Positions 26,120 through 64,000 of a DNA stretch of 64,000 bases are shown in pieces. A program made the position numbers and the translations under genes. A model generated the notes under the pieces. The model saw nothing but the letters and a program-made list of their open reading frames with translations. It searched no databases and was not told the DNA's origin. The DNA is from Eledone cirrhosa. Lineage: Eukaryota. Where the stretch lies: contig OZ024744.1 in the NCBI GenBank assembly GCA_964016885.1, forward strand, positions 7,006,001 through 7,070,000, in the 5' to 3' direction. How positions within the stretch are numbered: position 1 is the first letter of the stretch; each line of letters begins with the position of its first letter.

Positions 26120-27223
26120 ACCACTCATGATAACAATTAAAAAAAACAACAAAAAAGAAAACCACGTGACCAAGAAATACCGGGATGGCGGCCGGCAGGG
26201 AATAGCCGTGTCTCTACGGGAGGACGACCCCTCTAGTCTTGGTTGACACTCGTCCAAGAAGTGGTAACACGAAATGATTACCAATTGGCGGTTAACGATA
26301 AAACGCGACAAAATAAAGTAAATATCAAATGATAAAATCTCATACCGGATCGGCCGTCACCCGGGTCAAAAAGGGTCGCGTCCCTCAGGGAGGAACCAGA
26401 CTGGGGTCGAAAAATCAGCTAATGGTTCAAACCTTCCCATCACTTCGGAGCTGGAGACCTCCCATAACCGGAATACTCCTACTGTTGGCCCTCCATGCTC
26501 ACCACCAAGAAATCCAAAGAAAAAGAGAGAAAAATGGTCAAGGGAAGATAATAAAGAAGTCCTTGAGGCTTTCTACACTGCCATGTACTACCCATCAAAT
26601 ACATCGAATACAGAACAAACATATATCAACTGGAAAAAGAAACATCCCGAAAACAGAGACTATATTGACAGTTACAAACTAGCCAATATACGAAGAAATA
26701 TTGTAAAAAATAAGTTACTAATTGATATAGAAATTGATCAGATCAAGCTATTAGCACAAAGTCAGCGAAGGGAAAATGAAACATGTGTCAGTGAAAACGA
26801 GGCAAATTGTAACACTTCGAATCCCAGGGTTGGGGCGGAATCACTGGCAACAGAACAAATTAAAGAAAGGATCGAAAAAGTGGAGGGAGTGCATGCTCAA
26901 GATGAAACTCCAAATGAAAATAATGAGATCGTAAATCATAAAGAAATGAATGAGAATGAACTTGCCAACTTGAAGGATGAAATTATGATCGAATGGATGA
27001 AAATGAAAGAATCTGACATGGAGCAACGAGACACCCTCCCTAAGATCCAGAACTCCAAACAGAACCAAAAGATAATACACAAGACTAACATAATTCTCAA
27101 AAACATTATCATCACAAACAAACTAAACATTACTGATTTAAATCATCTCTATTATGCATCGGCTAAAGTCACCACTCACTTATGTGGAGTGAAGATAAAA
27201 AAACAAAGGAATGCCCACAAAAA
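26120..27223 (+). mobile_element. R4/Dong-like family B, 5' fragment (5'UTR plus N-terminal ORF part), 3'-truncated
   Basis: Nearly identical to 60072-61175. ORF 26583..27236 matches the N-terminal part of ORF 60276..61712. The ATG equivalent to 60276 is absent here. Confidence 0.9.
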
Positions 27224-27585
27224 CCACGGCTGTTGACGGTGGTAGTGTAGCCCTCTCCGGCGATTTTGTGGCCAGTGTAGTTACTGCGACTGTTAGTGTT
27301 GTCGCCGCTGCTGCCGCTGTTTTAGTTGTCCGTGCCCTTGGTATGGGTGCCATGGCTATTGCCCCCCTACTCACCGCGGAATGATCTGTTTCCTGTCCTA
27401 CTCATGGTAGCAGCGAACCGGGCATCGGAAGTAGGTTTCCTTCTCCTTTGCTGTTTTATGCGGGCAAAAGGCACAGAAATTACCCTTCGACCCACAGAGA
27501 TAACACTTTGCGCGCCTTCCTTCGACGCCTTCTTCGAGGTCTACGAGGTCCGGGATAGCCTCGATACACTCCTGGTCTTTTGAGA
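27224..27585 (-). pseudogene. Tx1-like ORF1 fragment (degenerate zinc knuckle), a further divergent variant
   Basis: DQECIEAIPD..VEGRRAKCYLCGSKGNFCAFC and APIPRARTTKTAAA align to ORF1 57434..58663 (NQECIEAIPD..VEGKRPKCFRCGSKTHLRAFC..APIPTPRKSKTAAA). Confidence 0.8.
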
Positions 27586-27793
27586 CGTGGTTCACTTCGC
27601 TCCTGTAAGTTTGTTCTATTTTCACTGTTATTCAAAATTTTCTATTGACATTTTGAAATCGTTTTGAAGCTAAGTAAGAACTGGCATACATGATTTCAAA
27701 ACGACATCAAATGTCAATGGAAGATGTTGACTAACAGTGAAGATAGAACAAACTTACAGGAGCGAAGTGAACCACGTCTCGAAAGGCTGAACC

Positions 27794-27856
<63 letters not shown>
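27794..27856. repeat. (AAT)n microsatellite
   Basis: Read directly; forms the 5' junction of a family A fragment. Confidence 0.99.
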
Positions 27857-27858
<2 letters not shown>

Positions 27859-28428
27859 GGCTGGAGACATGATGTGATGGGCAGGGTGATCCACTGGTAC
27901 CTATGCAAAGTAAACAATTTACCACATTCTGAGAAATGGTATGAGCATAAACCAGAGTCGGTGATAGAAAACGATCAGGTGAAGGTGCTGTGGGATTTTA
28001 GGATACAGACGGACAAGAAACTGGAACACAATAGACCTGACCTGGTGGTTTTGGACAAGGAAAAATGTTCGTGCCTGATTGTGGATGTGGCCTGCCCATT
28101 CGACACGAGAGTGCAAGAGAAGGAGAGGGAGAAAATTAACCGATACCAGGACTTAAAGTGGGAGGCAAAAAGGATTTGGAACTGCCATGAAGTCAAAGTG
28201 GTCCCGATTGTCATAGGCGCACTAGGGACTATCTCCAAAAGTTTCCAAGGATGCATAAAGAAAATTGGCACCGCCCCGCTTTTTGGAACACTTCAAAAGG
28301 CATGCTTGCTGGGAACAGCAAGAACCCTCCGATACGTCCTGAATATCTGAAGCTGCATGTAGTGGCTTGATATTCATTTCAACAAACTTTCCAGTTAAAT
28401 AATATCAATGACTCACACTCAAAGAACC
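27857..28428 (+). mobile_element. R4/Dong-like family A (subfamily A'), 5'-truncated: RLE endonuclease domain plus 3'UTR
   Basis: KGWRHD..WDFRIQTD..RPD..IVDVACPFD..EKINRYQDL..LRYVLNI matches the C-terminus of 33087..36479. Flanked by (AAT)n on both sides. Confidence 0.95.
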
Positions 28429-28450
28429 ATAATAATAATAATAATAATAA

Positions 28451-31400
28451 TGTTTTCTTTATTAACCACAAGGGTTTACATAAAGTAGACATTAAGGACA
28501 GTACAGGACAATACAGGATGGTACTAATGGGCATTTCTGCGTGTAAAAAACAAAAACAGAGGATGTAGCAGAAAAAATAACAATGAAAAATTCCCCAATA
28601 CGGTGGAGACTTCCGAGGGACATTCGTGGAGAAACCTCATTAAAAAGCCACAGTGACCCTGACCACCAGGGCAAGTGCCCTCTCCCAGTTTTCCACCTTT
28701 AATTTACAGACATATACTCAGAGTAGGCCCATTCACTCGGGCCATTCTTGCCTCTCACCCATCTTTCAACAAAATGCTGGGAAGAGAGCACTTCCCTCTC
28801 TACCCTGATTTTCCTTTTCAAATGAAATTTGAAAAAGTTAATCAGGGCATCACCGAAGAGGTAAGTGCTCGTCTTCAACCCTTTCAAACGTGTCCACCAT
28901 ACTATCTATTTCGCCATGGCCACCAGACAGATAAAAACTGCCTGCCCTTCCCGGCTAAAGGAAGGGGGCGGGGCAATCCTCACGATGGACTCAGCTGATA
29001 GCTGGATCCGTCCTACACGCGACAGCAGGTGTTCGACATAAACCCACAAGTCATCAATGCTCGGACACTGTACGAGTGCGTGCAGGACGGTTTCGTCGCC
29101 CTGCGCGCATCTCGGACATGCCCGGCTGACGGCACCTCCATGCCTGTAGAGTTTATCCCGAACTGGCAAAGCTCCTCGGTAGCACTGCCAGGCCAGGGAT
29201 TTCTGCAAGTTGTCCATAGGCCCCGACCCGAAAGTTCTCCCGAAGAGATTAGCTAGTTGATTTTCGTCGACGCCTAGAGTTACCCCAAGTACGTCGTCGC
29301 TCTTCCCCTCCACTAATCCTCTATGGAACGCCAAGGTGGAGTTTTCACCGATCACATTGCCCGATTGGTCGAGGTCTGTGAGCGCCTGAAGATATTCCAG
29401 TCTCCAAGCGCTCCCTCTCGGTCTTCGCTTGACCCAGGACTGCAGCTCCTTCAAGGTGACGAGCTGGAGAAATACGCATCTAGCAAACGGCGACCACACC
29501 TGATTACCGTCGAAGAAAAGGTGCAGATGTCGTAGCCTGAGCGCGTGTCTACGCATCATCAGCCACGGCATGCCCAGCCCTCCACGTAGCGGGTGTTGAC
29601 AGCAGATGGACCGCCTGGCCATCGGAGCGCGTCCCTTCCACAAAAAGCGAAAGAGCAAACGCTCCAGCGCAGTCAGGCGGGGCTTAGGACAAGGTACGAC
29701 GGTCAGGCGGTAGTAGATGACGGACGCGATATACGCGTTAGCCACCTCCGCTCGACCTTTCAGGGATAGCTTCCTCTCCGCCCATTTCTGGGTGAGAGAA
29801 GCCACCCTATTCGTCACCTCGTCCCAGTTTTCGTCCGTCTGGAGATCCGGACCGAACCAGACCCCGAGCAATTTAACTGATCCGTCCGTCCAGCGCCCGA
29901 CGACGCTGTGGACGGCATGGACCTGCCTCTCCAGGTGCCGAGCTGCAGGCCCACTGACTTTTCCTGGTTGATCATTGCTCCTGTCACCGCTTCGTATTCT
30001 TTTAGTGTAGTGCCGATCGCCTCGATGTGTTTGGCGTTCGACACCACTACGGTGACATCGTCCGCATATGTTGACACGGATCTTCCGCACCCTAGTTCGC
30101 GCGGGACCCCCCTCAACGTCTCCAGTTTGTGCAGTAATGGCTCGAGAGTCAATACGTACAAGAGGGACGAGAGGGGACATCCTTGGCAGACCGAGCGCAT
30201 GATGTTGAACGGTTCTGAAAGGTGACCGTTCACTCTCACCACAGAGCAGATGTCGCTGTGCATGGCAGCGATCCAGCCTCTGAAGACGGGCCCAAAGCCA
30301 GCCGCTCTCAGGACTGCCGCTAGGTAACGATGGTCAACCCTATCGAAAGCTTTCGACTGATCTAAATTGATCAAGGACCCACCCGTGCCAGGGTCCCTAG
30401 CTACCCTCTCTACGATGTATCGCATGAGGTGGAGCTTGTCGTGGATGGATCTGTCGGGAATGGCGCATGTCTGCGCCTCTCCCACCAGACCACCAACGAC
30501 AACCTCTTTGCTACCACCTTGGCCAAAATCTTGAACTCTGTGTTTAGCAGAGTTATGGGCCTGAAATTATCTATGTTATCCCCATTGTTCGGATCCTTTC
30601 TCAGCAGTGCCACCGCTCCTCGGCTCATAGAGCTGGGAATTCTCCCATTCTGTTGCCAGTTGCAGTAGACGTCCGCCAAGAGGCCTCCGAACAAGTCTGG
30701 CATCTGTACGTAAAGTTCATAGGGCAGACCATCCAAACCAGGCGATTTACCCCTTGTGCAGCCAGTCATTGCTTCCCGCACTTCAGTTGCTTCTGTTGTT
30801 GCTGCTACACTTGTTGCTGCCATTTCTGATGCTGGTGGTGTTGATGGTTGAGTCACTGGGGTGGGTAAGAGAGGTGGCCTCAACCTTTTAGCCTCAGGGC
30901 AGAAAGCCGTTAGGTGGGTTCCTTCACCACAAACGACACACCTAGTCCTTCTGCCCTCGACGATTGCGGTGAGGTGGCTGGCGTCAGTGAGGTCTATTAC
31001 CTCTGGGATCTCCTCAATGCTTTTTTGGTCCGCTTGGATCAGGAGCTCCATCCCAGATCCGGACCAGTTCTCCTGCTTTTCTTTCGCTATTTCGATTATC
31101 TTGGTGTTGGCCTCGATGCCGCCGAGGACAGCAGCCATTAGCCCGGGAATTTCGATGGCCGGTGGAACGTGGTTCACCCTGATCTTCACGAGTCTCTGGC
31201 CACAATAGCTTGGGACGAGTGTGAAGTCGTCACTACTTAATGGGGTCATGGAGTGTTCTCTGGCCTCCTGTGGTGTTCCAAAGAACACGTCCACGGTTCC
31301 ATATTTCTGCGCTCGTCTGATGTGGGTTTTTTCCCCACACATGTCCCAAAGCTTTTTGGATTTGTGACTCGGATGCCCCTTCCACTCGGCGCGATTTTAT

Positions 31401-32162
31401 GTTAATCGTCCGATAAGACACAGTGCATAGGCGCCGATGCTCCATTTTATTTGGTGGCGGGGGGTGAGGCTGACCCTGTACCCATCTTTCTTTACCATTC
31501 TCTTGGCTTCACTAATTCCTCTTGAGTTACCTGGATTGCTTCGCACTTTTTTGCTGCTCTGGCAAAAGACAGGGTGGTTTTCTTATTCTCATTGTTGTTG
31601 TTGCTGTTGTTGTTATCGTTATTTTTGTTATTGTTATTTTTAGTTTCAGTGGTAGTGGTGGCGTCAGTGGTGTTCGGTGTGGAAGAGTCCATTCTGAGTG
31701 AATCCATTTCGATGTCACGAGATAATTTATTTTTTCTTTTGTTTCTTTTGTCGCTGTGGTGGTGGTGGGGGTGGCGGCTTCAACACCTGCAGTCATTGGT
31801 AATGGCGGGAAATGAATGTCTGCATGAGACAAATTTAAATTATTGCTACTGCTTATATTTTTAGTGTTGGCAAACGTAGTAATATTTACAATGGTGGTGT
31901 TGGTGTGAGGTGTTAGTTTGTGAGGAAGGTGTGACTGTGAGTCGTCCATGATTTTTTAAAAGAAATTTTTGTTTGATAATTATAAAAGTTTAAATTTTGG
32001 GCTCAAGGCCCCAATCTTTTTGAGTGTCCTTATCAGAAAACAATGTATGTGCATTTATATACAGTTAACAATAACAATTTTCCATAAATGGCAATTTTAA
32101 ACAACTGAAAATAACAAACCTTTGCAGAGCTCACGATGATACGATTTACTACGTAGGTCGCC
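28451..32162 (-). mobile_element. Tx1-clade non-LTR element, chimeric/deleted: divergent ORF1 joined to RT, endonuclease missing, frameshifted
   Basis: RT motifs SPGLDG, NFRPITLLN, LDQSKAFD, QGCPLS and YADD; C-terminal CPRC..H..C; ORF1 knuckle CVVCGEGTHLTAFC. The 3' end reads AATAAAGAAAACA-(TTA)n. (AAT)n at both ends. Confidence 0.92.
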
Positions 32163-32221
<59 letters not shown>

Positions 32222-32250
32222 GAAGAAGAAGAAGAAGAAGAAGGAGAAGA
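32163..32250. repeat. (AAT)n changing to (AAG)n microsatellite
   Basis: Read directly. Confidence 0.98.
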
Positions 32251-32959
32251 ACCCCCCCCCTCCTCTCCTCTGGCTACACTATATAGGACAGCTAAACTCA
32301 CCAACACCAGAAACTAGATACACCAACCACCCCATCATCTGTGTACACTAAACACAACAGCCAGATAACGTCATTTTCACCTTCACCGCCACCGCTCACT
32401 ACGGCCATCATTACCACCACTATCCCATCACCGCCGCCACCACCCCTTGACTCCTTCACTACTGCCACCGCTACAGCACCATCACTACAGTAATACGGTC
32501 ACATCACCGCCACCACTGCCTCGGTATCGACATCACCACCACCACTGTCTCAGTATGGCTACCGCCGCCAGTCTTCCACTTCTCCCTGCTGGCTGCTACT
32601 TCCACATTATAGAATTCCTACTACTAACAAAGAGGAAGGCATCAAAATATATAGATAGACTCAAAAGAAAAAAGAAAAAACAAACAACAAAACCAAAGCA
32701 GCACAGCAACAACAGCAAAAACGAGAAAAACAAACAGAGAAAAACAAAAACAAAAAAAGAAACCCCAAAAACGTAAAGAAAATAAGAATGAAGAGAGAAG
32801 CAGGCGGACGGACAGAGAAGAGGGGGGAAAAAGTAAAACTTAAAAAACAAAAACTAAGTCAGACATTCGAACACTACATTACAATGAAACTTATGCTTAT
32901 TCATTTTTGGGGCCCTTTCTGCCTGTGTGTTTGTTTGTTTATGTGTGTTCGTATACAGC

Positions 32960-35900
32960 GTGGTGATAATGCCACACAAGGGCCAAGTGGGATGGCGGAT
33001 CCACAGATGGCTATGTAACTATACATTCGCCAATCCTCGATAAGAGTGTTTAAATATCGAACATAAACAGTTCGAATAACGGTGAAATGGAGACTAGAAC
33101 GTCATGTGACAGACTCTCACCCAACAGGTGCCCCCTGGCTCAGCAGCAGGAACCTGACTGTCAACCAAATACTGCTGATGTTGGAGGAAGAAGAAGAAGG
33201 AAAGGGGCCAGAACCAACTGGACGAAAGAATTGAATAGAACTGTTATGCAATGCTACCTGAAAAGTAACCCCAAGGAGAGGGGCTACAGGAGACGGATGC
33301 ATAACATCTGGAACGAGATTGGTTTATTTAAATTAGATGAACAAAAATTGGCCGGGCAGGCTCGGGTAATAAGAACTAATGGGTGGTTAAGCGAGCTGGA
33401 ACTGGAGGAACTGAGCAGAGAGAATGGCTTGGAGATGGCGGGTGTGGTATGCCAGACAAGCGAGCCGGTGGGAAATGAAGGTGAGGAGGTCCTGAGAACG
33501 GAGGAACCACCCGAAGCAGACAATGATCTGAATACTGAGATAAATAATACATGGAACAGAGATACGGCCACTGAGGAGATGAATGCTGACGGGCTAGGAC
33601 AAGATTCGGTTGACATCCTAAATTTAGTGGTAGATGAATTAAACAATGATAGTGGGAGACCTATGAACCTAAGATTTGTAGACAGGAAAAAGTTAAAAGA
33701 AACAACAGCTAAGGTAAACAAAGTCATCCCATACCTTGAGGCGAGGAGCCTTCACCAGTGCAACAATATCCTCAAAGCAACAGCAAATACGGTGAGGAAA
33801 CTACTTGGTATAAAAGCGAGAGGAAACAACAGACAAGAAAGAGCAGAGCCGTGGTGGAAGAAGCGACTGAGTGGGCAAATCGGGGAAATGAGAAATGACA
33901 TAGGAAAGCTTGAGTCACTACTGAATGGGACACTAAAAAACATAGGCACTAAAAATAGACTGGAAATAAAATACAAAACTAGGAGTAAAAAGTTAAATAT
34001 TATCATAGAGGAATTGAAGCAACGCATTGTAGCAAAGAGTGCAAAAATCAGGCGATACGAGAACAGAGTCAGTCAGTATAAACAGAACCGCATGTTCGAC
34101 AACAACCAGAAGATGCTGTTTGGACAGCTTGAGGGGAAAGAAAGAGGCAACGACTTGATCCCTGGGGCGGAACAAACTAAAACATTCTGGAGAGGAATAT
34201 GGGAGCAGGATGTTAGACACAATGCCCAGGCAGGGTGGATTGAGACAGTACAGAGGGAGATCGGTGAGCAGGCACAACAACAGACTGATTTGAGTATCAC
34301 AGTTGAAACTCTTAAGGGGCAAGCCAAAAAACTAACCAACTGGAAATCACCAGGCCCAGATGGTGTGCAGGGGTATTGGATTAAACATTTAACATCCCTC
34401 CACCCGAAGCTGACGGCCATGTTCAATGACTGCTTGGTGTCGGGTGAGGTGCCAGAGTGGTTGACAAAAGGTACCACAGTTCTGATAATGAAAGACCGAA
34501 TCAAGGGTAATGATGTTACCAACTATAGACCTATCACATGTCTGCCCGTAATGTGGAAACTGTTGACGAGCATTGTGTCTGAGGAAATCTACCATGACCT
34601 CCACACAAACAACTTGTTACCGGACGAACAGAAAGGATGCCGAAAGAAGTCACGTGGTACAAAGGACCAGTTGCTTATTGATAAGATGGTAATGGGGAAT
34701 TGCAGGAGGAGACACACTGATCTTGCCATGGGATGGATAGACTACAGAAAGGCATTTGACATGGTGCCTCATTCCTGGATCACCAAAAGCCTGGAGATCT
34801 TCAGGGTGGCAGATAACATCAGACAGTTGCTGGGCAGGAGTATGGGGTCCTGGGAGACAGAGTTGACATCAACTGGAGTATCCTTGGGAAGCGTGAAGAT
34901 CAAGAGAGGTATCTTCCAGGGAGATAGCCTGTCCCCTCTGTTGTTTGTCCTTGCCCTGATGCCCTTGACCATTATGCTGCGAAAAGTGAGAGCAGGATAC
35001 AAGTTGGGAAGGGGAGAGCTTACCATCAATCACCTCCTCTTCATGGACGATCTTAAGCTCTTCGGGAAAAGTGAGAAGGAGTTGGATGTGCTTGTTGACA
35101 CTGTCCGTATTTTCAGCAGTGATATATGTATGCAGTTTGGTATTGGTAAATGTGGAGTCATTGTGATGAAGAGGGGTAGGTTGAGCAGAAGTAACGGGAT
35201 CCAGATACCAACAGGTGAGATGATAAAGGAAATTGACTCTGAGGAAGGATACAAGTATTTGGGCGTTCTGGAGGCTGATGGCATAAAGAACAAAAAAATG
35301 AAGGAATTGTTAAGAACTGAATACATTCGGAGAGTAAGGAGCGTATTGAAGTCACATCTAAACAGCAGAAATGCCATAAGCGCAGTAAATTCCCGAGCTG
35401 TGTCTATTATTAGGTACAGTGCGGGAATTCTGAGATGGAATGTTGCTGAACAAAAAGAAATGGATAGGAAGACTAGGAAGCTATTGACTATCTACAACAT
35501 GTTCCACAAGAGGAGTGATGTCGATAGACTCTACCTAAGGAGATCTGAGGGTGGAAGAGGTCTTATCAGCATAGAGGACTGTGTTCAGATGGAGAAAAAC
35601 AACCTATACAAATACGTGACCTATAGTAAGGAGCCAATGCTCAGAACTGTACTGAAGGAGGGGACAGTAGGCCAGGGGATGTCCAAGGAGGAAATAACAT
35701 CAAGGAAGAAGAGCAGCCTTAAGGGAAAATCCCTTCATAGTACCTTCTTTGAGAAAACTGAATTTAGAGATCCACAGACATGGAACTGGTTGAGAAGAGG
35801 AGACCTCAAAAAGGCTACAGAAGGAATGCTAATGGCTGCGCAGGAGCAGGCCCTCAAAACGAAGTGGTTGAAGCACCATATCTACAAGGAGGAGGCTAGC

Positions 35901-36553
35901 CCACTGTGCAGGATCTGTGGAGAGAGAGAGGAGACTGTGGCTCACATTGTGTCCGAGTGTAAACACCTAGCCCAGACCCACTATAAGGGCTGGAGACACG
36001 ATGTGATGGGCAGGGTGATCCACTGGCACCTGTGCAAAGTAAACAATCTACCACATTCTGAGAAATGGTATGAGCATAGGCCAGAGGCGGTGATGGAGAA
36101 CAATCAGGTGAAGGTGCTGTGGGATTTTAGGATACAGACGGACAAAAAACTTGAACACAATAGACCTGACCAGGTGGTTGTGGACAAAGAAAAAAGATCG
36201 TGCCTGATTGTGGATGTGGCCTGCCCGTTCGACACGAGAGTGCAAGAGAAGGAGAGGGAGAAAATTAACCGATACCAGGACCTAAAGTGGGAGGTGAAAA
36301 GGATTTGGAACTGCCATGAAGTCAAAGTGATCCCGATTGTCATAGGCGCACTGGGGACTATCTCCAAAAGTTTCCAGGGATGGTTAAAGAAAATCGGCCC
36401 CTTCACGCTTTTTGGAACGCTTCAAAAGGTATGCTTGCTTGGAACAGCAAGAACCCTCCGATACGTCCTGAATATCTGAGGCTGCAGGTAGTGGCTTGAT
36501 ATTCAATCCAACGGACTTTCCAGTTAACCAACATCAATGACTGAGATTCAAGG
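32960..36553 (+). mobile_element. Family A R4/Dong-like element with complete ORF (5' boundary uncertain, somewhere in 32251-33086)
   Basis: Intact ORF and a ~74-nt 3'UTR ending ...GAGATTCAAGG followed by (AAT)n. There is no second 5' copy to define the start. Confidence 0.85.
33087..36479 (+). CDS. Intact 1130-aa R4/Dong-clade retrotransposon protein (Myb-like N-terminus, RT, CCHC, restriction-like endonuclease), family A
   Basis: N-terminal WTKELN..CY..W..LAGQAR. RT motifs SPGPDG, NYRPITCL, WIDYRKAFD, GIFQGDSLSP, FMDD and YKYLG. CRIC-x8-H-x4-C knuckle, RHD, and PD..D..K of the RLE. Confidence 0.96.
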   Translation: METRTSCDRLSPNRCPLAQQQEPDCQPNTADVGGRRRRKGARTNWTKELNRTVMQCYLKSNPKERGYRRRMHNIWNEIGLFKLDEQKLAGQARVIRTNGWLSELELEELSRENGLEMAGVVCQTSEPVGNEGEEVLRTEEPPEADNDLNTEINNTWNRDTATEEMNADGLGQDSVDILNLVVDELNNDSGRPMNLRFVDRKKLKETTAKVNKVIPYLEARSLHQCNNILKATANTVRKLLGIKARGNNRQERAEPWWKKRLSGQIGEMRNDIGKLESLLNGTLKNIGTKNRLEIKYKTRSKKLNIIIEELKQRIVAKSAKIRRYENRVSQYKQNRMFDNNQKMLFGQLEGKERGNDLIPGAEQTKTFWRGIWEQDVRHNAQAGWIETVQREIGEQAQQQTDLSITVETLKGQAKKLTNWKSPGPDGVQGYWIKHLTSLHPKLTAMFNDCLVSGEVPEWLTKGTTVLIMKDRIKGNDVTNYRPITCLPVMWKLLTSIVSEEIYHDLHTNNLLPDEQKGCRKKSRGTKDQLLIDKMVMGNCRRRHTDLAMGWIDYRKAFDMVPHSWITKSLEIFRVADNIRQLLGRSMGSWETELTSTGVSLGSVKIKRGIFQGDSLSPLLFVLALMPLTIMLRKVRAGYKLGRGELTINHLLFMDDLKLFGKSEKELDVLVDTVRIFSSDICMQFGIGKCGVIVMKRGRLSRSNGIQIPTGEMIKEIDSEEGYKYLGVLEADGIKNKKMKELLRTEYIRRVRSVLKSHLNSRNAISAVNSRAVSIIRYSAGILRWNVAEQKEMDRKTRKLLTIYNMFHKRSDVDRLYLRRSEGGRGLISIEDCVQMEKNNLYKYVTYSKEPMLRTVLKEGTVGQGMSKEEITSRKKSSLKGKSLHSTFFEKTEFRDPQTWNWLRRGDLKKATEGMLMAAQEQALKTKWLKHHIYKEEASPLCRICGEREETVAHIVSECKHLAQTHYKGWRHDVMGRVIHWHLCKVNNLPHSEKWYEHRPEAVMENNQVKVLWDFRIQTDKKLEHNRPDQVVVDKEKRSCLIVDVACPFDTRVQEKEREKINRYQDLKWEVKRIWNCHEVKVIPIVIGALGTISKSFQGWLKKIGPFTLFGTLQKVCLLGTARTLRYVLNI

Positions 36554-36579
36554 AATAATAATAATAATAATAATAATAA
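36554..36579. repeat. (AAT)n junction between A and B copies
   Basis: Read directly. Confidence 0.98.
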
Positions 36580-37095: not shown

Positions 37096-37098
37096 ATA

Positions 37099-37148
<50 letters not shown>

Positions 37149-48455: not shown

Positions 48456-48456
<1 letters not shown>

Positions 48457-49211: not shown

Positions 49212-49240
49212 AATAACAATAACAATAATAATAATAATAA

Positions 49241-50924: not shown

Positions 50925-50926
<2 letters not shown>
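49241..50926 (-). mobile_element. Tx1 5'-truncated copy (RT C-terminal half plus 3'UTR)
   Basis: TLEPLL..YADD..GGLG..CRRC..H..C. (AAT)n on both sides. Confidence 0.94.

Positions 50927-50964
<38 letters not shown>

Positions 50965-52656: not shown

Positions 52657-52658
<2 letters not shown>
50965..52658 (-). mobile_element. Tx1 5'-truncated copy with the same truncation point as 49241-50926
   Basis: GGCTCGAGAGT|AATAAT junction at both 50926 and 52658. Confidence 0.94.

Positions 52659-52727
<69 letters not shown>
52659..52727. repeat. (AAT)n junction
   Basis: Read directly. Confidence 0.99.
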
Positions 52728-52729
<2 letters not shown>

Positions 52730-53744
52730 GGAGATCTGAGGGTGGAAGAGGTCTTATCAGCATAGAGGACTGTGTTCAGATGGAGAAAAACAACCTATAC
52801 AAATACGTGACCTATAGTAAGGAGCCAATGCTCAGAGCTGTACTGAAGGAGGGGACAGTAGGCCAGGGGATGTCCAGGGAGGAAATAACATCAAGGAGGA
52901 AGAGCAGCCTTAAGGGAAAACCCCTTCATAGTACCTTCTTTGAGAAAACTGAATTTAGAGATCCACAGACATGGAACTGGTTGAGAAGAGGAGACCTCAA
53001 AAAGGCTACAGAAGGAATGCTAATGGCTGCGCAGGAGCAGGCCCTCAAAACGAAGTGGTTGAAGCAAAATATCTACAAGGAGGACGCCAGCCCACTGTGC
53101 AGGATCTGTGGAGAGAGAGAGGAGACTGTGGCTCACATTGTGTCCGAGTGTAAACACCTAGCCCAGACCCACTATAAGGGCTGGAGACACGATGTGATGG
53201 GCAGGGTGATCCACTGGCACCTGTGCAAAGTAAACAATCTACCACATTCTGAGAAATGGTATGAGCATAGGCCAGAGGCGGTGATGGAGAACAATCAGGT
53301 GAAGGTGCTGTGGGATTTTAGGATACAGACGGACAAAAAACTGGAACACAATAGACCTGACCTGGTGGTTGTGGACAAAGAAAAAAGATCGTGCCTGATT
53401 GTGGATGTGGCCTGCCCGTTCGACACGAGAGTGCAAGAGAAGGAGAGGGAGAAAATTAACCGATACCAGGACCTAAAGTGGGAGGTGAAAAGGATTTGGA
53501 ACTGCCATGAAGTCAAAGTGATCCCGATTGTCATAGGCGCACTGGGGACTATCTCCAAAAGTTTCCAGGGATGGTTAAAGAAAATCGGCCCCTTCACGCT
53601 TTTTGGAACGCTTCAAAAGGCATGCTTGCTTGGAACAGCAAGAACCCTCCGATACGTCCTGAATATCTGAGGCTGCAGGTAGTGGCTTGATATTCAATCC
53701 AACGGACTTTCCAGTTAACCAACATCAATGACTGAGATTCAAGG
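52727..53744 (+). mobile_element. Family A 3' fragment, open frame to the stop at 53670
   Basis: RRSEGGRGL..CRIC..RHD..RPDL..RYVLNI plus 3'UTR. TAA microhomology at the 5' junction. Confidence 0.95.
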
Positions 53745-54020
53745 AATAACAATAACAATAATAATAATAATAATAATGTTTTCTTTATTAACCACAAGGG
53801 TTCACATAAAGTAGACATTAAGGACAGTACAGGACAATACAGGACGGTACAAATGGGCATTTCTGCGTGTAAAAAACAAAAATAGGATGTAACAAAAAAT
53901 AACAATGAAAAATTCCCCAATAGGGGAGAGACTTCGGAGGGACATTTGTGGAGAAAGCCCAGTAAAAGGCCACAATGACCCTGACCACCAGGGCAAGTGC
54001 CCTCTCCCAGTTTTCCACCT

Positions 54021-57000
54021 TTAATTTACAGATATATACTCAGAGTAGGCCCATTCACTCGGGCCATTCTTGCCTCTCACCCATCTTTCAACAAAATGCT
54101 GGGAAGAGAACACTTCCCTCTCTACTCTGATTTTCCTTTTCAAATGAAATTTGAAATAGTCAATCAGAGCATCACCGAAGAGGTAAGTGCTCGTCTTCAG
54201 CCCTTTCAAACGTGTCCACCATACTATCTCTTTCGACATGGCCACCAGACAGATAAAAACTGCCTGCCCTTCCCGGCTAAAGGAGGAGGGAGGGGCAATC
54301 CTCACGAAGGACTCAGATGATAGCCGGATCCGTCCTAAACGCGACAGCAGGTGTTCGACATAAACCCACAAGTCAGCAATTTTCGGACACTGGACGAGTG
54401 CGTGCAGGACGGTTTCGTCACCCTGCGTGCATCTCGGACATGCCCGGCTGACGGCACCTCCATGCCTGTAGAGTTTATGCCGAACCGGCAAGGCTCCTCG
54501 GTAGCACTGCCAGGCCAGAGATTTCTGGAAGTTGTCCATAGGCCCTGGCCCGAAAGTTCTTCCGAAGAGATTGGCTAGTTGATTTTCGTCGACGCCTAGA
54601 GTTTCCCCAAGTACGTCGTCGCTCTTCCCCTCCACTAATCCTCTATAGAACGCCGAGGCGGAGTTTCCACCGATCACATTGCCCGATTGGTCGAGGGCTG
54701 TGAGCGCCTGAAGACATTCCAGTCTCCAGACGCTCCCTCTCGGTCTTCGCTTGACCCAGGACTGCAGCTCCGTGAAGGAAACGAGCTGGGGAAATACGTG
54801 TCTAGCAAACGACGACGACACCTGATCACCGTCGAGGAAGAGGTGGAGATGTCGTAGCCTGAGCGCGTGTCTGCGCATCATCAGCCACGGCATTCCCAGC
54901 CCTTCACGTAGCGGGTGTTGACAACAGATTGACCGCCTGACCATCGGAGCGCGTCCCTTCCACAAAAAGCGAAAGAGCAAACGCTCCAGCGCAGTCAGGC
55001 GAGGCTTAGGACAAGGTACGACGGTCAGGCGGTAGCAGATGACAGACGCGATGTACACGTTAGCCCCCTCCGCTCGACCTTTCAGGGATAGCTTCCTCTC
55101 CGCCCATTTCTGGGTGAGAGAAGCCACCCTGCTCGTCACCTCGTCCCAGTTTTTGTGCGTCTGGAGGTCCGGACCGAACCAGAACCCTAGCAATTTAACC
55201 GGTCCGTCCGTCCAGCGTCCGACGACGCTGTTGGACGGCATGGACCTGCCTCTCCAGGTGCCGAGCTGCAGGCCCACTGACTTTTCCTGGTTGATCATTG
55301 CTCCTGTCACCGCTTCGTATTCTCTTAGTGTAGTGCCGATCGCCTCGATGTGTTTGGCGTTCGACACCACTACGGTGACATCGTCGGCATATGCTGACAC
55401 GGATCTTCCGCATCCTAGTTCGCGCGGGATGCTCCTCAACGTCTCCAGTTTGTGCAGTAATGGCTCGAGAGTCCATACGTACAAGAGGGACGAGAGGGGA
55501 CACCCTTGGCGGACCGAGCCCATGATGTTGAACGGTTCCGACAGGTGACCGTTCACTCCCACCACAGAGCAGATGTCGCTGTGCATGCCAGTGATCCAGC
55601 CTCTGAAGACGGGCCCAAAGCCAGCCGGCCTCAGGACTGCCGCTAGGTAACGATGGTCGATCCTATCGAAAGCTTTCGACTGATCTAAATTGATCAAGGA
55701 CCCACCCGTGCCAGGTTCCCTAGCTACCCTCTCTACGACGTATCGCATGAGGTGGAGGTTGTCGTGGATGGATCTGTCGGGAATGGCGCATGTCTGCGCC
55801 TCTCCCACCAGACCACCAACGACAAGCGCCAACCTCTTTGCCAGCACCTTGGCCAAAATCTTGAACTCCGTGTTTAGCAGAGTTATGGGCCTGAAATTAT
55901 CTATGTTATCCCCCTTGTTCGGATCCTTTCTCAGCAGTGCCACCGCTCTTCGGCTCACAGAACTGGGAATTCTACCGTTCTGTTGCCAGTTGCAGTAGAC
56001 GCCCGCCAAGAGGCCTCCTAACAAGTCTGGCATCTGTACGTAAAGTTCATAGGGCAGACCATCCAAACCAGGCGATTTACCCCTTGTGCAACTAGTCATT
56101 GCATCCCGTACTTCAGCGGTTGTTATCGGCTTTTCGCAACACTCCGCCTCAGTGGCCGAAAGCCGCGGCAGTCCGTCGAGGTAGACACTAAAGTCCATCC
56201 CTCGATCCGGCCCGCCACTGCCCCCGAACAGTTGAGCGAAGTGTCGCTGAAAAGCTTCACACATTTGCCCGGGATCGAGTAGCATGCGCTCGTCGTGGTC
56301 CACCAAAGACCGGATCGTGGCTTTGTTGCCACGACGCGCCTCCGCCACTCGAGCCCATTGAACGGCTTTCGTCCCCTCGTGTCTGAGAGCACGCACCCTT
56401 GCTCTGACAACGCAGCCTTCGTGCTTTGCATTGAAGAATTTGTCAAGGGCCAATTTCTCCGCAAGCACGTCGGTCGCAATGCCTTTGCTAAGCGCCTCGT
56501 CTAATTTTCAAACTAGTTCTCCCTCTGCTCTATTTTTCTCTATTGCTAAAGCCTTACTAAACCTAATCGATTCTATTCTAATCGCTCTTTACAGAGCAAA
56601 CCACCACCTGTTGTTGACGATGGCCCCCGTCAACGCCCACTTAACTAGTTCGCTAATCCGGTCTCTGTAGGCCTTGCGCGCTGGTAAGGACGCGTTTAGC
56701 TTCCAGTAGCCGGGTCCTCGTCTATGAAGCCTATCTAAGTCAAGCACACAGATCACGAATTTGTGGTCCGTGTAGCTGACTATCTTGAATTGTGGACAGC
56801 CTATGCTAGACCTATCTATTTCCCTACAAAATACTCTATCTAGATATGATCTGGATGACCCTATGCGATTTGTCCAACTCCATATTGGCACATTCGGGAA
56901 ATACAATCGGTACCTGTCAGACAGTTCAAAACGCCTGACCAGGTTGGTGAGGCTCTTGCACCCTCCACCCATATCCGCTAATCCCACACAGTCCCAGCGT

Positions 57001-57431
57001 GCATCTAAGATCCCGTTCCAGTCGCCCACTAACACTAAAGAGCGGGACGTTCCAAGAAAGGTCTCCAGACGCCGGAAGAAATCAGGCCGCCCTGCTCCTG
57101 TCGGGGCATAGACGGTCACTAGCCTGAAAGCTTGCCTGTCTCAGCTGGTCACGTCCAGCACCACCAACTTACCCTCTGGATCCAGGAAGATGGCCCGTAT
57201 GGCGAGATCCAAACCTCTCCGAAAAAGCACAGCAACTCCTCCCCCCGATCCAGGACGGCTGGGAGATGCGTACACATCGTAGCCGCCGAAGATCCGTGCT
57301 TCGGAGATTCTGGTCTCGCTGATGGCCACTACATCTATGTTTAGTGACCTGAGGTCGTTGAGCAGGTGACCCTGCTTCCATGACGACCCCAAGCCACGCG
57401 CATTTATGCTGCCTATTCTGAGTGAGGTCAT
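54021..57431 (-). pseudogene. Tx1 ORF2: APE endonuclease, RT and CCHC, with three in-frame stops (57141, 56589, 56508)
   Basis: APE: MTSLRIGSINARGL..AISET..VYAP..GDWNG..SYLDRVF..TDH. RT: SPGLDG, NFRPITLLN, LDQSKAFD, VRQGCPLS, YADD. Knuckle CPRC-x8-H-x4-C. All pieces share one frame. Confidence 0.93.
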
Positions 57432-57433
57432 GT

Positions 57434-59579
57434 TTAAAATAGAGTGGAAAAGATGGGAAAGACCACTTTCCGTACTTTTTGTAGAGGAGGGATGGTTTTT
57501 ACATCCCTTTTCACTTGATCGTCTGGTGAAGGGACCGTTGAATCGTCCCATCGGCTGGTCATCGGCTCTTCTATGAGTATGTCCGAATATACTCTTCGGT
57601 TGATAGTTCCTCCTAGGTCTCTGAAATCACCAACTGCGTTGGGGAATTTCGTTTTAATGTTTGTGTATTGTTTCTGTGCTATTTTTAGCAGTTTTATGTT
57701 AGTTGGCGTTTTGATTGGTGCTGGTATTATGTAGTCGTGTTGTGAAATGTCTGTGCGTTCAATTATGTAAGTCATTAGTTTCTTATTGTGTGTATTTATT
57801 GCCGTGCATTTGTTTTTCTGGGGGTGGGGTGTGGTTCTGCTATTTTCTTGTCGTTTTTGCTGGGTGTGTGTGTTTTGTTGTTGTGTTTGCGATGTTGGTG
57901 CTTGTGGTGTTGAAGGTGTTGTTGTTGTTGGCGCTGGGGTTGTCGCCGGTGGTGATGGTGGTGCTAGTGTGGGTGGTGATGGTGTTGGTGGTGTTGCTGC
58001 TGTGAGTCTCTTTGCAGTAGACTTTACCCTTTTTTCATTTCTTTCCTCCCTTTTCAAAGGCGACGATGCGCTGCTTCTGCGTTTGTGCCTTCTTACGACA
58101 TTTTGCCATCCCTCTCCCACCTCACACTCCATGTCTGATTCTGTGAGGTCGGGGAGGGGTACCAGCTCCACTCTTTCACTTGTTGTTGTTGGTGATGTTT
58201 GCACTGGAGTCTCTGTTGCAGCTGCATTTGGTATTGCTGTTGTTGTTGTTAATACTTCCACTGCTGCTGCTGTTTTTGATTTCCGTGGCGTGGGTATGGG
58301 TGCCACGGACCTATCGTTCCTGGTTGCCGCTTGTCCTGTTGCTGGTAGCCGTCGAGCCGGTTTCGGAAGGAGGGGGGTTTTCTCCTTTCTCAAGGTCTTC
58401 TCGTTGCAGAAGGCCCTGAGGTGAGTCTTCGATCCACAGCGAAAGCATTTCGGGCGTTTTCCCTCAACATTTATGGGCAGTTGAGTGCCGTTATCGAAGT
58501 CTATCACATCCGGGATAGCTTCGATGCACTCCTGGTTGGTTTGGATTAACATCTCAATGGAGGTGACGACCCAATCTTCTCTTACTTTTTTCTGTACTTG
58601 CAGTACAGTTGTTTTGTCCTCGATTCCGACGAGGACAGACGCGGCCAGCCAAGAAGGGGCCATCCCGGGGTGGCACGTGGGTCAGTTTGACCCTCACAAT
58701 TTTTTGCCCGCAGTAGGAGGGCACCAACACCATTTCCTCGCTCCTTAGGGTCACTACGGATTGAACCTTTGCCTCCTGGGGTGTGGCAAAAAGTACGTCT
58801 ACGGTGGCATATTTCTTGCCTCGGGTGATGTGTGTTTTCCGCTTCCACACAGACCCCAAGGCTTTTTGTATTTGAGCCTCTGTGGCTCTTTCCACCCTAC
58901 GGGATTTTGTACTTACTGTACGGTACGTGACCGTACAGTGCTGTTGGGTTTCAAAAAATGTTTCCGCTGCCTTGCAGATTGCTCGGTGTCCTGTTTTTGT
59001 CACCATCTTCTTCGCTTCCTCTAATTCCTCATTTGTTATGAGGATTGTTTCCAGGTTCTTCGCGATACCTGCAAACGAGATTGGTTTTTCTTTGCTGCTG
59101 TTGTTGTTGTTGTTGTCGTCAGAGCTGCTGTTATTTTTGTTGTTGCTGCAGGTACTACGACTACTGCCGCCGCCGCTGTTGCTGTGGTTGTTGTTGTTGT
59201 TGCTGCTGCTAATGCTGCTGTTGTTTATGCTGCTGCTGATGCTGTTGCGGCTGCTTCTGTTGTTTTCATTGTCACTGTTGCTGTTGTTATTACGGCTGCT
59301 ACTGCTATTATTCCTGACGTCAGACGAATGAAATGGGTTTTCGTATTTCCCGCACACCTGTTTCGTCGTCGTTGTCGTCGTCGTCGTCGTGGAGAAATCT
59401 TGCACGCTTTGCACGAGACTTTTCTTTTCTGTCGTCGCTTGCGAAAGAGAAGGGAGGGAGAGAGACACATTTAAAGAAGGGAGGGAGAGAGACAATCTTC
59501 TCTCTGCTGTAGTGACGATTGAGGAAGAAGAAGACGGAATGAGTGGGAGTGACTTATGCAAATTCTTTTTCGTAGCCAT
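57434..59579 (-). pseudogene. Tx1 ORF1 (gag-like: low-complexity N-terminus, RRM-like region, CCHC knuckle), one frameshift near 58668
   Basis: MATKK at 59579. ORF pieces 58554..59654 and 57434..58663 overlap at VPP/GMAP. Knuckle CFRCGSKTHLRAFC. Confidence 0.88.
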
Positions 59580-59797
59580 GTTGTTTTTTTTTTGTTTAAA
59601 ATAAATATTGGGCACAAAACCCCAATAAGCTGTTATTTCACCCCGAAGGGCCAAATAACGGGCAGAAAGACCCCTCTCACGAGGAGGAGGGTGTTTTTGT
59701 CTATAAGTTGGTTAAAGTTTTAAACAATTTACAAATGTTATAGCGGTCAAAATTTACAATACCTTACAGAGCCGAGCCTCCGTCAACCATAGCATTC

Positions 59798-59840
59798 AAT
59801 AATAATAATAATAATAATTATTATTATTATTATTATTATT
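59798..59840. repeat. Inverted microsatellite (AAT)n-(ATT)n, perfect 40-bp palindrome at 59798-59837
   Basis: Read directly; centre AA|TT at 59817/59818. Confidence 0.97.
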
Positions 59841-62800
59841 GACCACCGGCCAAACGTCAACAACTATGGCACTTCTGGCTCCCCCTTTCCTCACCAACAA
59901 TATAAAAAGCCCCAGCACCACCTCCGACATAGCCAACAACAATAACAGGCAACTTCAGCAAAAAGTATATTATATTATTGTAATGCACTGGGTAATTGCT
60001 GGCCTTGGGCCTGGAGTGGAGACAATTATTAATAATTTCATTCGTAAGCCACGCAATGCTCACATTAAGGAACCACTCATGATAATAACAATTTAAAAAA
60101 ACAACATAAAAGAAAACCCCGTGACCAAGAAATACCTGGATGGCCGCCGAGGGGAATAGCCGTGTCTCTAGGGGAGAACGACCCCTCTAGTCTTGCTTGA
60201 CACTCGTTCTAGAAGTGGTAACACGAAATGATTACTCCTTGGCGGATAAGGATAAAACGCGACAAAATAAAGTAAATGACTAATGATAAAATCTCATACC
60301 GGATCGGCCGTCACCCGGGTCAAAAAGGGCCGCGTCCCTCAGAGAGGAACCAGACTGGGGTCGAAAAATCAGCTAATGGTTCAAACCTTCCCATCACTTC
60401 GGAGCTGGAGACCTCCCATAACCGGAATACTCCTACTGTTGGCCCTCCATGCTCACCACCAAGAAATCCAAAGAAAAAGAGAGAAAAATGCTCAAGGGAA
60501 GATAATAAAGAAGTCCTTGAGGCTTTCTACACTGCCATGTACTACCCATCAAATACATCGAATACAGAACAGACATATATCAACTGGAAAAAGAAACATC
60601 CCGAAAACAGAGGCTATATTGACAGTAACAAACTAGCCAATATACGAAGAAATATTGTAAAAAAAAAGTTACTAACTGATATAGAAATTGATCAGATCAA
60701 GCTATTAGCACAAAGTCAGCGAAGGGAAAATGAAACATGTTTCAGTGAAAACGAGGTAAATTGTAACACTTCGAATCCCAGGGTTGGGGCGGAATCACTG
60801 GCAACAGAACAAATTAAAGAAAGGATCGAAAAAGTGGAGGGAGTGCATGCTCAAGATGAAACTCCAAATGAAAATAATGAGATCGTAAATCATAAAGAAA
60901 TGAATGAGAATGAACTTGCCAACTTGAAGGATGAAATTATGATCGAATGGATGAAAATGAAAGAATCTGACATGGAGCAACGAGACACCCTCCCTAAGAT
61001 CCAGAACTCCAAACAGAACCAAAAGATAATACACAAGACTAACATAATTCTCAAAAACATTATCATCACAAAGAAACTAAACATTACAGATTTAAATCAT
61101 CTCTATTATGCATCGGCTAAAGTCACCACTGACTTATGTGGAGTGAAGATGAAAAAACAAAGGAATTCCCACAAGAAATCTACTTGGAAAGAGAACATCA
61201 ATCGCCAAATAAACCTTCTCCGATCTGACATAGAAATTTTAACAAACCATAAAGTAGGTGAACATGTTAAACAAACTAAACTTAGAAAATTGAAAAGAAA
61301 GTACAGTATAAAATCAACAAGTGATATAGACATGCTGATAGAAATAATCAAGCAAAAAGTGTCGGCCAAAGCTGCTCGTATAAGGCGCTTTGAAAAACGA
61401 TCTAGATTCTATAAGGACAATAATATGTTCAAAAACAATCAAAGAAACTTCTACAGAAAAATTGGTAAGTCAACAATAACTGCTAAATCGATACCACCCA
61501 AGGAGGAAGTGCAAGAATTCTGGGAAAAGATCTGGGCCGAAGAAAAAGTCCATAACATACATGCCCCATGGACAGACAATCAAATGAAAGATACAGCTCA
61601 CCTTGAAGAACAAATATGGGAAAATATAAGAGTTGAACAGTTGCGCTTGGCTCTAAGAAAAACTAGCAAATGGAAATCACCAGGAAAAGACAAATACAAA
61701 ATGTTTGGATAAATGCCTTCACAGAGTCTCATGAGCTGTTAGCCCAACTTTACAATGAAATAGTTAAGGAGCCAGAAAAGATACCACCATGGCTAGTTAA
61801 CAGCATTACATTCCTGCTTCCGAACATCAGTCCTAACTGAATATACATATGACCACCTAATAACAAATGACCTATTTCCCATTGAGCAGAAAGGGTGTAA
61901 ACGAGGCTCATATGGCTGTAAGGATCAGCTTCTGGTTAACAAAATGATACTGGAAGATTGTCATAATAGACACAAAAATCTATCAATTGCTTGGATAGAT
62001 TATAAAAAAGCATTCGATAGTTTGCCACACAGTTGGATTGAAAAATGTTTAGAGATTTTCAAAATATCCTCCGTTGTCAGGAGGTTTTTATCATTCAGTA
62101 TGAAGACATGGAAAACGACACTCCTTTTGAATAGTGAAACAAAATCACTGGAAGCTGGAGAAGTTAATATTAATTGTGGAATTTTTCAGGGTGACTCTTT
62201 ATCACCGCTTTTATTCTGCATCGCAATTATACCATTAAGTAAAATGCTCAATGAAACAAAACATGGATATAAAGTCTATGACAAAACCATGAATCACTTG
62301 TTCTACATGGATGACCTGAAACTTTTGCAAAAAATGATGAACAATTGCAAGGGCTATTATCCACTGTGGAACAGTTCAGTGATGACATTAAAATGGAGTT
62401 TGGACTAGATAAATGCGCCAAAGCAACGTTCACCAGAGGAAAGCTGCTGAAGAGTTCAGACATTAATCTTGATCGGGGGAACGTGATAAGAGAACTTGAT
62501 CAAGAAAAAACTTACAAATATCTAGGTGTTTGTGAAGGAGACGGAATCAAGCACTCGACAATGAGGGAAAGGATAAGGAAGGAATGTTACCGCAGAGTCA
62601 GAGCAATCTTAAGAACGGAATTGAATGCAAGGAATAGGATCGATGCCATAAACACGCTTGCCATACCAGTAGTAACCTACAGTTACAATGTCATCAACTG
62701 GTCAAGCACAGAGATCCGTAAACTCGATACAAAAATTCGAAAATTCTTAACCATGCACAGAATGCATCACCCTAAGGCAGATACAGATAGAATATATCTC

Positions 62801-63970
62801 CCTAGGAAAGAAGGAGGACGTGGGTTAATCCAGTTAGACATTGCGTTGAAAACTGCAACAATTGGATTATCTACATATCTAAGGGAATCACATGATTGGA
62901 TGATCATACTCGTTTTGAAACACGAAAGCATCAAAAGATCATATTCCATTACAAAAGATGCACAAAAATACAGTAATGGACTACAAATTTCAGAAGTCCC
63001 ATTTACTGCTGAAATGGAAAACACAGAAAAAGCAAAGCAGGTAAAAGTAACTGCAAAGAAAGAACTGCTACACAAACTGGGTAAGAAATGGCAAGAAAAG
63101 CCTCTGTATGGAAAATACCCAGAACGAGCTAACAATCCTGATGTTGACAAAACTTTAACCCATCAGTGGTTGGCATCCTCTGGACTGAAATCGGAGACTG
63201 AAGGACTGATTATATCAGCACAAGATCAGTGTCTGCCAACAAAAAGTTACCAAGCCAACATAATAAAAAATGGATGCAGCCAGAGACCATTGACCATATA
63301 ATTTCAATGTGCAGTCCTATAGCTCCAACCGAATACCTAAACAGGCATGACAGAGCTGCACAATACATACATTGGATAATGTGTAAGCATTTTGACCTGC
63401 CCCATCAAAAGAATTGGTGGGAGCATCAACCAGCTCCCATACTTGAAAAAGATCACATCTCAATCTTGTGGAACTTTAGCATCCAAACAGACCGAAAAAT
63501 AGATGCAAATAGACCTGATATAATATTGAAGGACTTTAAAAAGAGGGTATGCCTGCTAATTGATATGTCCGTTCCAATAGACAAGAATGTATCTATAAAA
63601 ACATTTGAAAAATTGAGCAAGTATAAGGACCTGGAGATAGAAATTGGAAAAATGTGGAAATTGAGAACTAAAACAATACCAGTGGTTGTAGGCGCTCTGG
63701 GAATGATACCTAAGGGGTCTAATGATTACTTATCGCAAATCCCAGGAAATCCGCGTATAGGGGCAATACAAAAGATAGTACTAATGGGAACTGCCCATAT
63801 ACTAAGGAAGATTCTGTCAATATAAGTACATCACAAGTCTAAACACTAAAGATGCATGTGTGAGTATGTATGTTCTTTCTTCAACAAGGCGGACCTTGTT
63901 GTCTCTTGAGGTCACTGGTTGTGACTTGGTGATAACTCGTATGAACATAAAGCAAGATAAATGCAACCGT
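59841..63970 (+). mobile_element. Near full-length family B R4/Dong-like element; ORF 60276..63825 broken by frameshifts and two short deletions
   Basis: Myb-like N-terminus, QGDSLSP, FYMDD, YKYLG, RHD and RPD..D. Relative to the 37152 copy, a deletion at ~61823 removes NYRPITCL and one at ~63280 removes CRVC. The 3'UTR is followed by (AAT)n at 63971-63994. The 5' boundary is inferred from the microsatellite. Confidence 0.92.
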
Positions 63971-64000
63971 AATAATAATAATAATAATAATAATTAAAAA

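Follow-up and report, generated by a model that had tools for sequence, protein, structure and literature searches.

Why do two unrelated groups of retrotransposons lie interleaved, in opposite orientations, between runs of a single trinucleotide? The question is raised by positions 26120 to 63994 of a 64,000-nucleotide stretch of the Eledone cirrhosa genome (assembly GCA_964016885.1, contig OZ024744.1, positions 7,006,001 to 7,070,000, forward strand), the whole of which is here called the window. Pieces of two families with a restriction-like endonuclease (RLE), A and B, alternate there with Tx1-type families carrying an apurinic/apyrimidinic endonuclease (APE), C1, C1b and C2, and an earlier note made from the sequence alone had read the arrangement as one (AAT)n target shared with opposite polarity. 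A search of the 3.0-Gb assembly confirmed that this opposed occupancy is genome-wide and not a local oddity: A and B read (AAT)n in their own sense, and the Tx1-type families read (ATT)n. We consider it highly probable that two Dong-like RLE families and a Tx1-type APE clade occupy (AAT)n throughout the genome in fixed opposite orientations, likely inserting through target-primed reverse transcription (TPRT) from nicks in opposite strands.

Opposed occupancy of AAT repeats

Exact pattern counts, which take in only copies whose motif is unmutated, returned 9671 C1 3′ ends, with three ATT units within 1-3 nt in 7395 and three AAT units in 13; 2416 of the 2505 full-length C1 5′ ends lay directly after three ATT units. 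For family A there were 10,133 3′ ends, 5084 of them forward, and three AAT units followed 4620 of the forward ends, three ATT units eight (the tail count uses forward matches only; the reverse count of 11,592 was inflated by repeated matching and left unused). When 9.5 kb was read for each of the 39 best other C1 copies, at least three ATT units stood at the 3′ end in 36; 32 copies reach the 5′ end and all have ATT there, and the 5′ flanks of the remaining seven were ATT-type in three, not so in three and unresolved in one. At least three AAT units closed the 3′ ends of 26 of 29 other A copies and 28 of 28 other B copies. A repeat preference, for which PMC4494074 asks for over 20% of flanks, was found at 96% of full-length Tx1 5′ ends and 76% of 3′ ends. 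By these exact counts the shared target and the strict opposition of polarity hold genome-wide, and neither unique-sequence flanks nor random orientation prevails.

The members also lie beside one another. Another member starts within 170 nt of 67 of 126 sampled 3′ ends (14 of 30 position-ordered Tx1, 16 of 39 best-hit Tx1, 18 of 29 A and 19 of 28 B ends), and all 67 neighbours are polarised, like kinds head to tail and unlike kinds opposed. For this tally a short interspersed element (SINE) piece within the B reference was masked, and two of the 16 best-hit Tx1 neighbours are short duplicates of the element's own end; A-Tx1 tail-to-tail junctions were judged from sampled loci. Perfect AAT tracts of at least five units make up 0.145% of a 600-kb sample (six contigs, from which 60 stretches of 10 kb were taken at even spacing), where 15 of 31 AAT tracts adjoin a member and 21 of 23 borders are oriented as expected. 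The same AAT junctions and arrays occur on many chromosomes.

In TPRT, synthesis is primed at a nick in the strand opposite to the element's sense. That polarity would have the RLE of A and B nick the (ATT)n strand, which would then prime, and the Tx1 APE do likewise on the (AAT)n strand, probably at a T-A step, as the constant ATT phase at Tx1 junctions suggests, with microhomology blurring that phase. Each insertion would divide one tract into two of the same polarity and, since repeat would be left on both sides, later copies of either kind could land beside earlier ones. The few repeat units carried by the family A RNA tail would both aid annealing and add repeat, and recombination and deletion would rework the arrays afterwards. 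The polarity is likely inherited in each lineage and not evolved in response to the other, since Dong reads TAA in its sense and the published microsatellite targets of Tx1 elements are listed as pyrimidine-rich.

Target, tail and the (ATCT)n sister clade

The earlier note had missed a Tx1 radiation in which the AAT-targeting group forms one branch and a sister branch occupies (ATCT)n. A 3′ motif shared by Tx1-type elements gave 22 matches in the sample, one of them spurious; judged by eye, the repeat that follows is ATT-type in about nine, (ATCT)n in 11 and (TC)n in one. The ATCT clade holds at least six families (loci L161, L166, L168, L181, L189, L193 and L240-L269), one of which, with at least 40 near-identical copies, looks very recent. 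Thirty ATCT-family 3′ ends had at least two TCTA units in 20 cases and AAT or ATT in none, and none of 30 abutted A or B; ATCT stood upstream of many truncated copies. When 157 ends were clustered into 12 families, each represented by two rows in a midpoint-rooted tree, six ATT-type and six ATCT families separated at 100/100. The flank repeat follows this tree, but as there is one such split only, the label is borne by kinship alone. In three ATT-clade copies the hairpin loop of the APE is NRIGSS, and in the sole ATCT copy with an APE it is NRSGQS; with that single copy, the difference would be a lead only. The corresponding loop of the L1 endonuclease (L1-EN) influences nicking (PMC1950540). 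It is a tentative proposal, to which we give somewhat less than even weight, that these elements form a microsatellite-partitioning community: the Tx1 radiation would have split (ATT)n, (ATCT)n and perhaps (TC)n through small hairpin-loop changes, and the ATT clade and the Dong-like families would renew each other's targets, together bordering about half of the AAT tracts and being a main maker of them.

It could be argued that targeting is real and is set mainly by annealing of a 3′ repeat in the RNA, at nicks from a loose endonuclease or from host repair at fragile tracts. A tails open with recurring AAC or AGT variant units in independent copies, so that part of the A tail is encoded; nearly all Tx1 ends have a terminal ATT; L1-EN reads structure more than sequence (PMC1950540); and annealing has been proposed for SART1 (PMC7265360). 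However, the encoded Tx1 tail is just about 3-4 nt, and at L040, L220, L234 and L237 the element ends in a single ATT followed by CTT, ACT or unique sequence, which argues against a long encoded tail. The sister clades have near-identical 3′ ends and yet differ in repeat and in APE hairpin loop, and endonuclease swaps between TRAS1 and SART1 carry the specificity across (PMC7265360). We regard control by annealing as improbable.

Slightly less probable still is an account in which the repeats are self-encoded tails and leaders, insertion has little sequence preference and the polarity mirrors the element's own tail. The recurring units in A tails speak for it, as would a co-transcribed leader at full-length Tx1 5′ ends. 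Truncated copies, however, cannot carry a 5′ leader repeat, and their 5′ junctions therefore test target against leader. A strict 15-nt classifier (window and neighbour loci excluded, identical junction strings collapsed) scored 31 of 42 truncated A junctions as AAT, one as ATT and 10 as other, and 17 of 21 truncated B junctions as AAT and four as other, against a background of 441 and 442 of 200,000 random positions (0.22% per orientation). AAT is thus more than a 3′ tail, as the 5′ junctions carry the repeat too. An interrupted 18-nt run is duplicated on both flanks of a truncated copy (L061), and a 19-nt interrupted run around an ATCT-family copy (L241). The lone terminal ATT of some Tx1 copies stands against this account as well, and it has no explanation for the 67 of 126 ends that abut another member, all polarised.

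Several points weigh against insertion into a pre-existing repeat from opposed nicks. The weakest result is that of truncated Tx1 5′ junctions (n = 30), with 11 ATT, one AAT and 18 other, the 18 counting in favour of self-encoded repeats; several of the latter looked, by eye and not blind, like chaining errors, internal deletions or joins to the interior of an A or B element. About 24% of Tx1 3′ ends lack a perfect run of three ATT units. Among 12 full-length Tx1 copies with an interruption at most 20 nt from the junction, four allow an 18-nt duplication, eight give a 5′/3′ overlap of just 3-15 nt and none duplicates the interruption, so that a fixed target-site duplication of 18 nt is not established among these copies. 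Later slippage or an RNA leader could account for the missing duplication, and such a leader could be the source of the 5′ repeat in full-length copies. Junction polarity has exceptions in inverted (AAT)n(ATT)m runs and in a Tx1 family (F10, L197) that starts with AAT and then ATT. The nicked strand and the cut bond are ones that we infer from the polarity of TPRT. Finally, the toy model of array growth, in which one tract is chosen at each insertion and becomes two, runs on parameters that were guessed; it puts 0.36-0.48 of ends next to another element (observed, 0.41-0.68), which would fit target regeneration but is no proof of it.

Relation to known systems

A and B are Dong-like RLE families. 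The family A open reading frame (ORF; 33054-36479, 1141 aa stop to stop) encodes a reverse transcriptase (RT), a CCHC knuckle and a PD-(D/E)xK RLE; that of family B is intact in a relative elsewhere (L200, 1216 aa). The two proteins are 35% identical, and the RVT_1 profile was found in both families. The top structural matches of their RTs are to R2; the RLE match is weak, and the RLE catalytic motifs are present. No motif for N-terminal C2H2 zinc fingers, an R2 trait, was seen in A, B or any of 74 long relatives. A Trp-spaced N-terminal segment is conserved in 75 of 120 relatives; Pfam gave no Myb/SANT match in the N-terminus, where published detection of the clade's diverged SANT/Myb-like domain had required HHpred. 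None of the 120 listed relatives is named Dong, R4 or Rex6.

Dong carries a ribozyme like that of hepatitis delta virus (HDV) at its 5′ end. In A and B, crude tests found none: there was no Rfam match, and none by a simple descriptor lacking a positive control. For most insects, molluscs and cnidarians, the reported Dong target is (TAA)n (PMC7998251), with TAA upstream in the element's sense, as seen from a primer (PMC3774820). The likeness to the Dong/R4 clade lies in the single ORF, the RT, the CCHC knuckle, the RLE, the absence of an N-terminal zinc finger and a (TAA)n target in the element's sense; the difference is that here APE elements lie interleaved with two families that share the target at such protein distance. 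At their 5′ ends, A (L130:8148-8500) and B (L200:900-1230) have about 300 nt in common at 72%, in spite of proteins only 35% identical; this may be a conserved RNA structure.

Intact ORF1 and ORF2, the latter with APE, RT and zf-RVT, are found in two Tx1 copies (L046 and L067), so that the APE domain needs no repair before an assay. The APE catalytic motifs align with those of L1 ORF2p. Among named relatives, the RT is closest to a protein of Argonauta hians (73%), which points to a likely octopod host. The RT is also 42% identical to "transposon TX1 149 kDa protein" (E 7e-61) and matches L1 ORF2p at E 7e-51, over a longer stretch and in another database, figures that may favour Tx1 over L1 proper. 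C1 (53778-59797) and C1b (28452-32162) are 93-94% alike in ORF2 and at the 3′ end, with different 5′ ends and diverged ORF1, which suggests an ORF1 swap.

Kibi targets (TC)n, Koshi (TTC)n and crocodilian Tx1 families (TTCC)n or (TTTC)n (PMC4494074). The present elements resemble them in having two ORFs, an ORF2 with APE, RT and zinc finger, and a microsatellite target, and differ in that the target is (ATT)n or (ATCT)n; compared by target, they work like Kibi and Koshi and are not filed under them. The one 3′ end found in (TC)n, the Kibi target, lies at L158:2616.

The convergence of unrelated endonucleases on one repeat that the earlier note proposed stands, but its novelty was overstated, as Utopia (RLE) and Keno (Tx1) share one site in the U2 snRNA gene (PMC4640811). 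Their 3′ flanks are identical and their orientation is hence the same, and the U2 gene, being low in copy number, is not a target that is renewed in the manner of a free microsatellite. TRAS and SART are both APE elements of the R1 clade. They enter one simple repeat, that of Bombyx telomeres, in opposite orientations (PMC7265360). In contrast to these mostly telomere-confined elements, the endonucleases here are unrelated and the target lies scattered across the genome. Opposed entry by TRAS and SART, Dong in (TAA)n and Tx1 elements that target microsatellites, all invoked in the earlier note, are thus in print.

In Octopus vulgaris, Dong-R4 elements are listed as recently active and L1-Tx1 elements as active, and the excerpt mentions no targets (PMC13282606); that of PMC12988792 mentions neither Dong, Tx1 nor microsatellites. 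Neither Tx1 in (ATT)n or (ATCT)n nor mixed R4/Tx1 microsatellite arrays were found in the literature searched, whose scope stopped short of subscription journals and Repbase notes; the target list in Fig. 3 of PMC4494074 may bear on the novelty of the Tx1 targets, and the comparison also took in PMC9115989, PMC4824008 and PMC5678591. Each ingredient has precedent; the Tx1 targets, the opposed sharing of a dispersed microsatellite by RLE and APE elements, and the ATT/ATCT sister split appear new. They add two microsatellite targets for Tx1-type elements and a case, on a genome scale (A and C1 have about 10,000 exact 3′ ends apiece), of RLE and APE lineages sharing one dispersed, self-renewing target with opposite polarity. 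Because the sister Tx1 clades differ in target and include intact ORFs and young, nearly identical copies, they offer a natural pair for studying what sets APE specificity, a question for engineering and evolution alike. An AAT microsatellite of this genome is often the junction of a transposon, a point to heed in marker design and repeat annotation.

Layout and reworking of the array

Element pieces were placed by self-comparison of the window and by mapping onto natural full-length copies, with the following result (UTR, untranslated region).

1-24498, no strand: 48-bp satellite (Tandem Repeats Finder; context only)
26120-27223, +: 5′ portion of family B (RLE); 96.4% to the B copy at 60072
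27224-27795, -: Tx1-like piece of a further family, 5′ end and ORF1 start; weak tblastx match to the C1 ORF1 region (E 6e-8)
27796-27855, +: (AAT)20
27856-28430, +: family A 3′ fragment, by mapping to full-length copies
28431-28451, +: (AAT)7 between A tail and Tx1 tail
28452-32162, -: Tx1 copy of C1b type (5′ end and ORF1 its own), internal deletion near 30786
32163-32251, +: (AAT)19, then about (AAG)10
32240-36553, +: family A, about 245 nt of 5′ UTR missing, open ORF 33054-36479
36554-36579, +: (AAT)8
36580-37102, +: family B 3′ fragment, by mapping to full-length copies
37103-37147, +: (AAT)15
37153-39936, +: family B, 5′-truncated, by mapping to full-length copies
45575-46684, +: family A fragment, older type, degenerate AAT upstream
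46685-47192, -: (AAT)8, Tx1 family C2 3′ fragment (46709-47119), (AAT)24
47193-48455, no strand: duplicated unit of hybrid A fragment (+), (AAT)7, C2 copy 47975-48385 (-) and (AAT)23
48456-49241, +: family A fragment, young type, with AAC/AAT tail
49242-50926, -: Tx1 C1, 5′-truncated, by mapping to full-length copies
50927-50965, +: (AAT)11 AAC AAT
50966-52658, -: Tx1 C1, truncation point as in the 49242 copy; older tandem duplicate, 97.1%
52659-52727, +: (AAT)23
52727-53777, +: family A fragment, young type, with AAC/AAT tail
53778-59797, -: Tx1 C1, full length (6020 nt); ORF1, and ORF2 with APE, RT and zf-RVT; ORFs broken
59798-59840, no strand: (AAT)7(ATT)8 inverted junction
59841-63970, +: family B, truncated 5′ UTR, broken ORF; intact relative L200:1994-5641 (1216 aa)
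63971-63994, +: (AAT)8; the array goes on with A, Tx1, A and A to about 79.6 kb

All 10 RLE pieces, from the two families, are on +, all seven Tx1-type pieces are on -, and AAT runs lie between them where the earlier note had placed them. The six Tx1 copies that keep a 3′ end have such runs at both ends, as it had claimed; the seventh piece, a 5′ part only, has a repeat run at its 5′ junction. The expectation of AAT on both sides of every insertion, borne out genome-wide at 5′ and 3′ junctions, fails locally for three family B pieces: that at 26120-27223 has AAT at neither end, its 3′ part being lost and the remainder fused to the Tx1-like piece; that at 37153-39936 is followed at its 3′ end by a short copy of its own UTR without AAT; and that at 59841 is touched by the ATT part of its upstream (AAT)7(ATT)8 run. 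The picture of one interleaved array is likewise right as to mixing and polarity and wrong as to unity, since 26120-63994 holds two clusters, at 26.1-39.9 kb and from 45.5 kb onward, separated by 5.6 kb of other sequence. The second cluster extends to about 79.6 kb in window coordinates, beyond which no further A, B or Tx1 match occurs out to 164 kb.

Growth of the array was not purely insertional, as had been supposed: unequal crossover and deletions shaped it too. Over the initial 150 nt, the A piece at 47193 agrees with young A at 98.7%, and from there on with the older A at 45575 at 99.8%; the C2 copies at 46709 and 47975 are 99.8% identical. Together, these show that a 1.27-kb unit was duplicated through unequal crossover between two A copies. 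The C1 copies at 49242 and 50966, 97.1% identical, have a common truncation point. With these two duplicate pairs, in keeping with the local duplication already suspected, the six Tx1 copies represent at most four independent insertions. A single duplicated A-Tx1 cassette is ruled out by discordant identities: the A fragments at 48456 and 52727 are 99.5% alike and the Tx1 copies adjoining them only 94.9%, so the A-Tx1 junctions arose as separate events, young A having likely entered tracts next to older Tx1. An origin mainly by local duplication of segments, with copies tolerated as they accumulate in heterochromatin flanking the satellite, for which the 1.27-kb unit, the tandem Tx1 copy and a satellite just 1.6 kb away could be cited, is largely refuted, and very improbable, given the same junctions on many chromosomes, the discordant identities of adjacent copies and the 15 of 31 evenly sampled AAT tracts that adjoin a member.

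The special role given to the satellite block was not upheld. Dependence on it is rejected, as arrays lie on many chromosomes (flanks of other arrays were viewed over 1.5-8 kb, and satellite adjacency was judged within that range) and the satellite fills all 100 kb fetched upstream of the window with no A, B or Tx1 member inside. At 1-24498 it has a higher-order repeat of about 9.5 kb, with the same ORF patterns at 342 and 9883.

At 27223 in the window and at L050, L068, L123 and L207, the interior of a Tx1 element is fused directly to that of an A or B element, and no repeat separates them; these fusions point to deletions inside arrays. Inverted (AAT)n(ATT)m runs occur at 59798-59840 and at L052:8166, L094:223, L122:1911 and L207:3006. 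Three of them directly precede a truncated A or B 5′ end and possibly reflect snap-back synthesis in 5′ joining. Some junctions (32220-32251 in the window; L040, L054, L093 and L045) hold (AAG)n/(CTT)n or compound AAT-AAG runs, through either looser targeting or later repeat turnover. The gap at 39.9-45.5 kb consists of simple repeats and an unrelated, decayed APE-RT element (42590-45480, -), which ends at an (AC)n run, outside the AAT pattern, and which we take to be RTE-like from its motifs.

A very abundant SINE (about 80 copies in 600 kb, L155-L209), presumably with a tRNA-like head and a Meta-domain-like core, ends in AATTAT. That it might be a third member targeting AAT was rejected: of the 85 matches that the motif gave in the sample, read by eye, about 80 were SINE-like 3′ ends, most of which stop after AATTAT and continue into other sequence. 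Its last ~25 nt are loosely like the Tx1 3′ end, the one resemblance on which mobilisation by Tx1 could be argued. A SINE 3′-end piece lies inside the family B 5′ UTR (59980-60040 in the window; L200:1696-1750), and in some SINE copies an ATT tract has expanded and now contains insertions of Tx1 or A.

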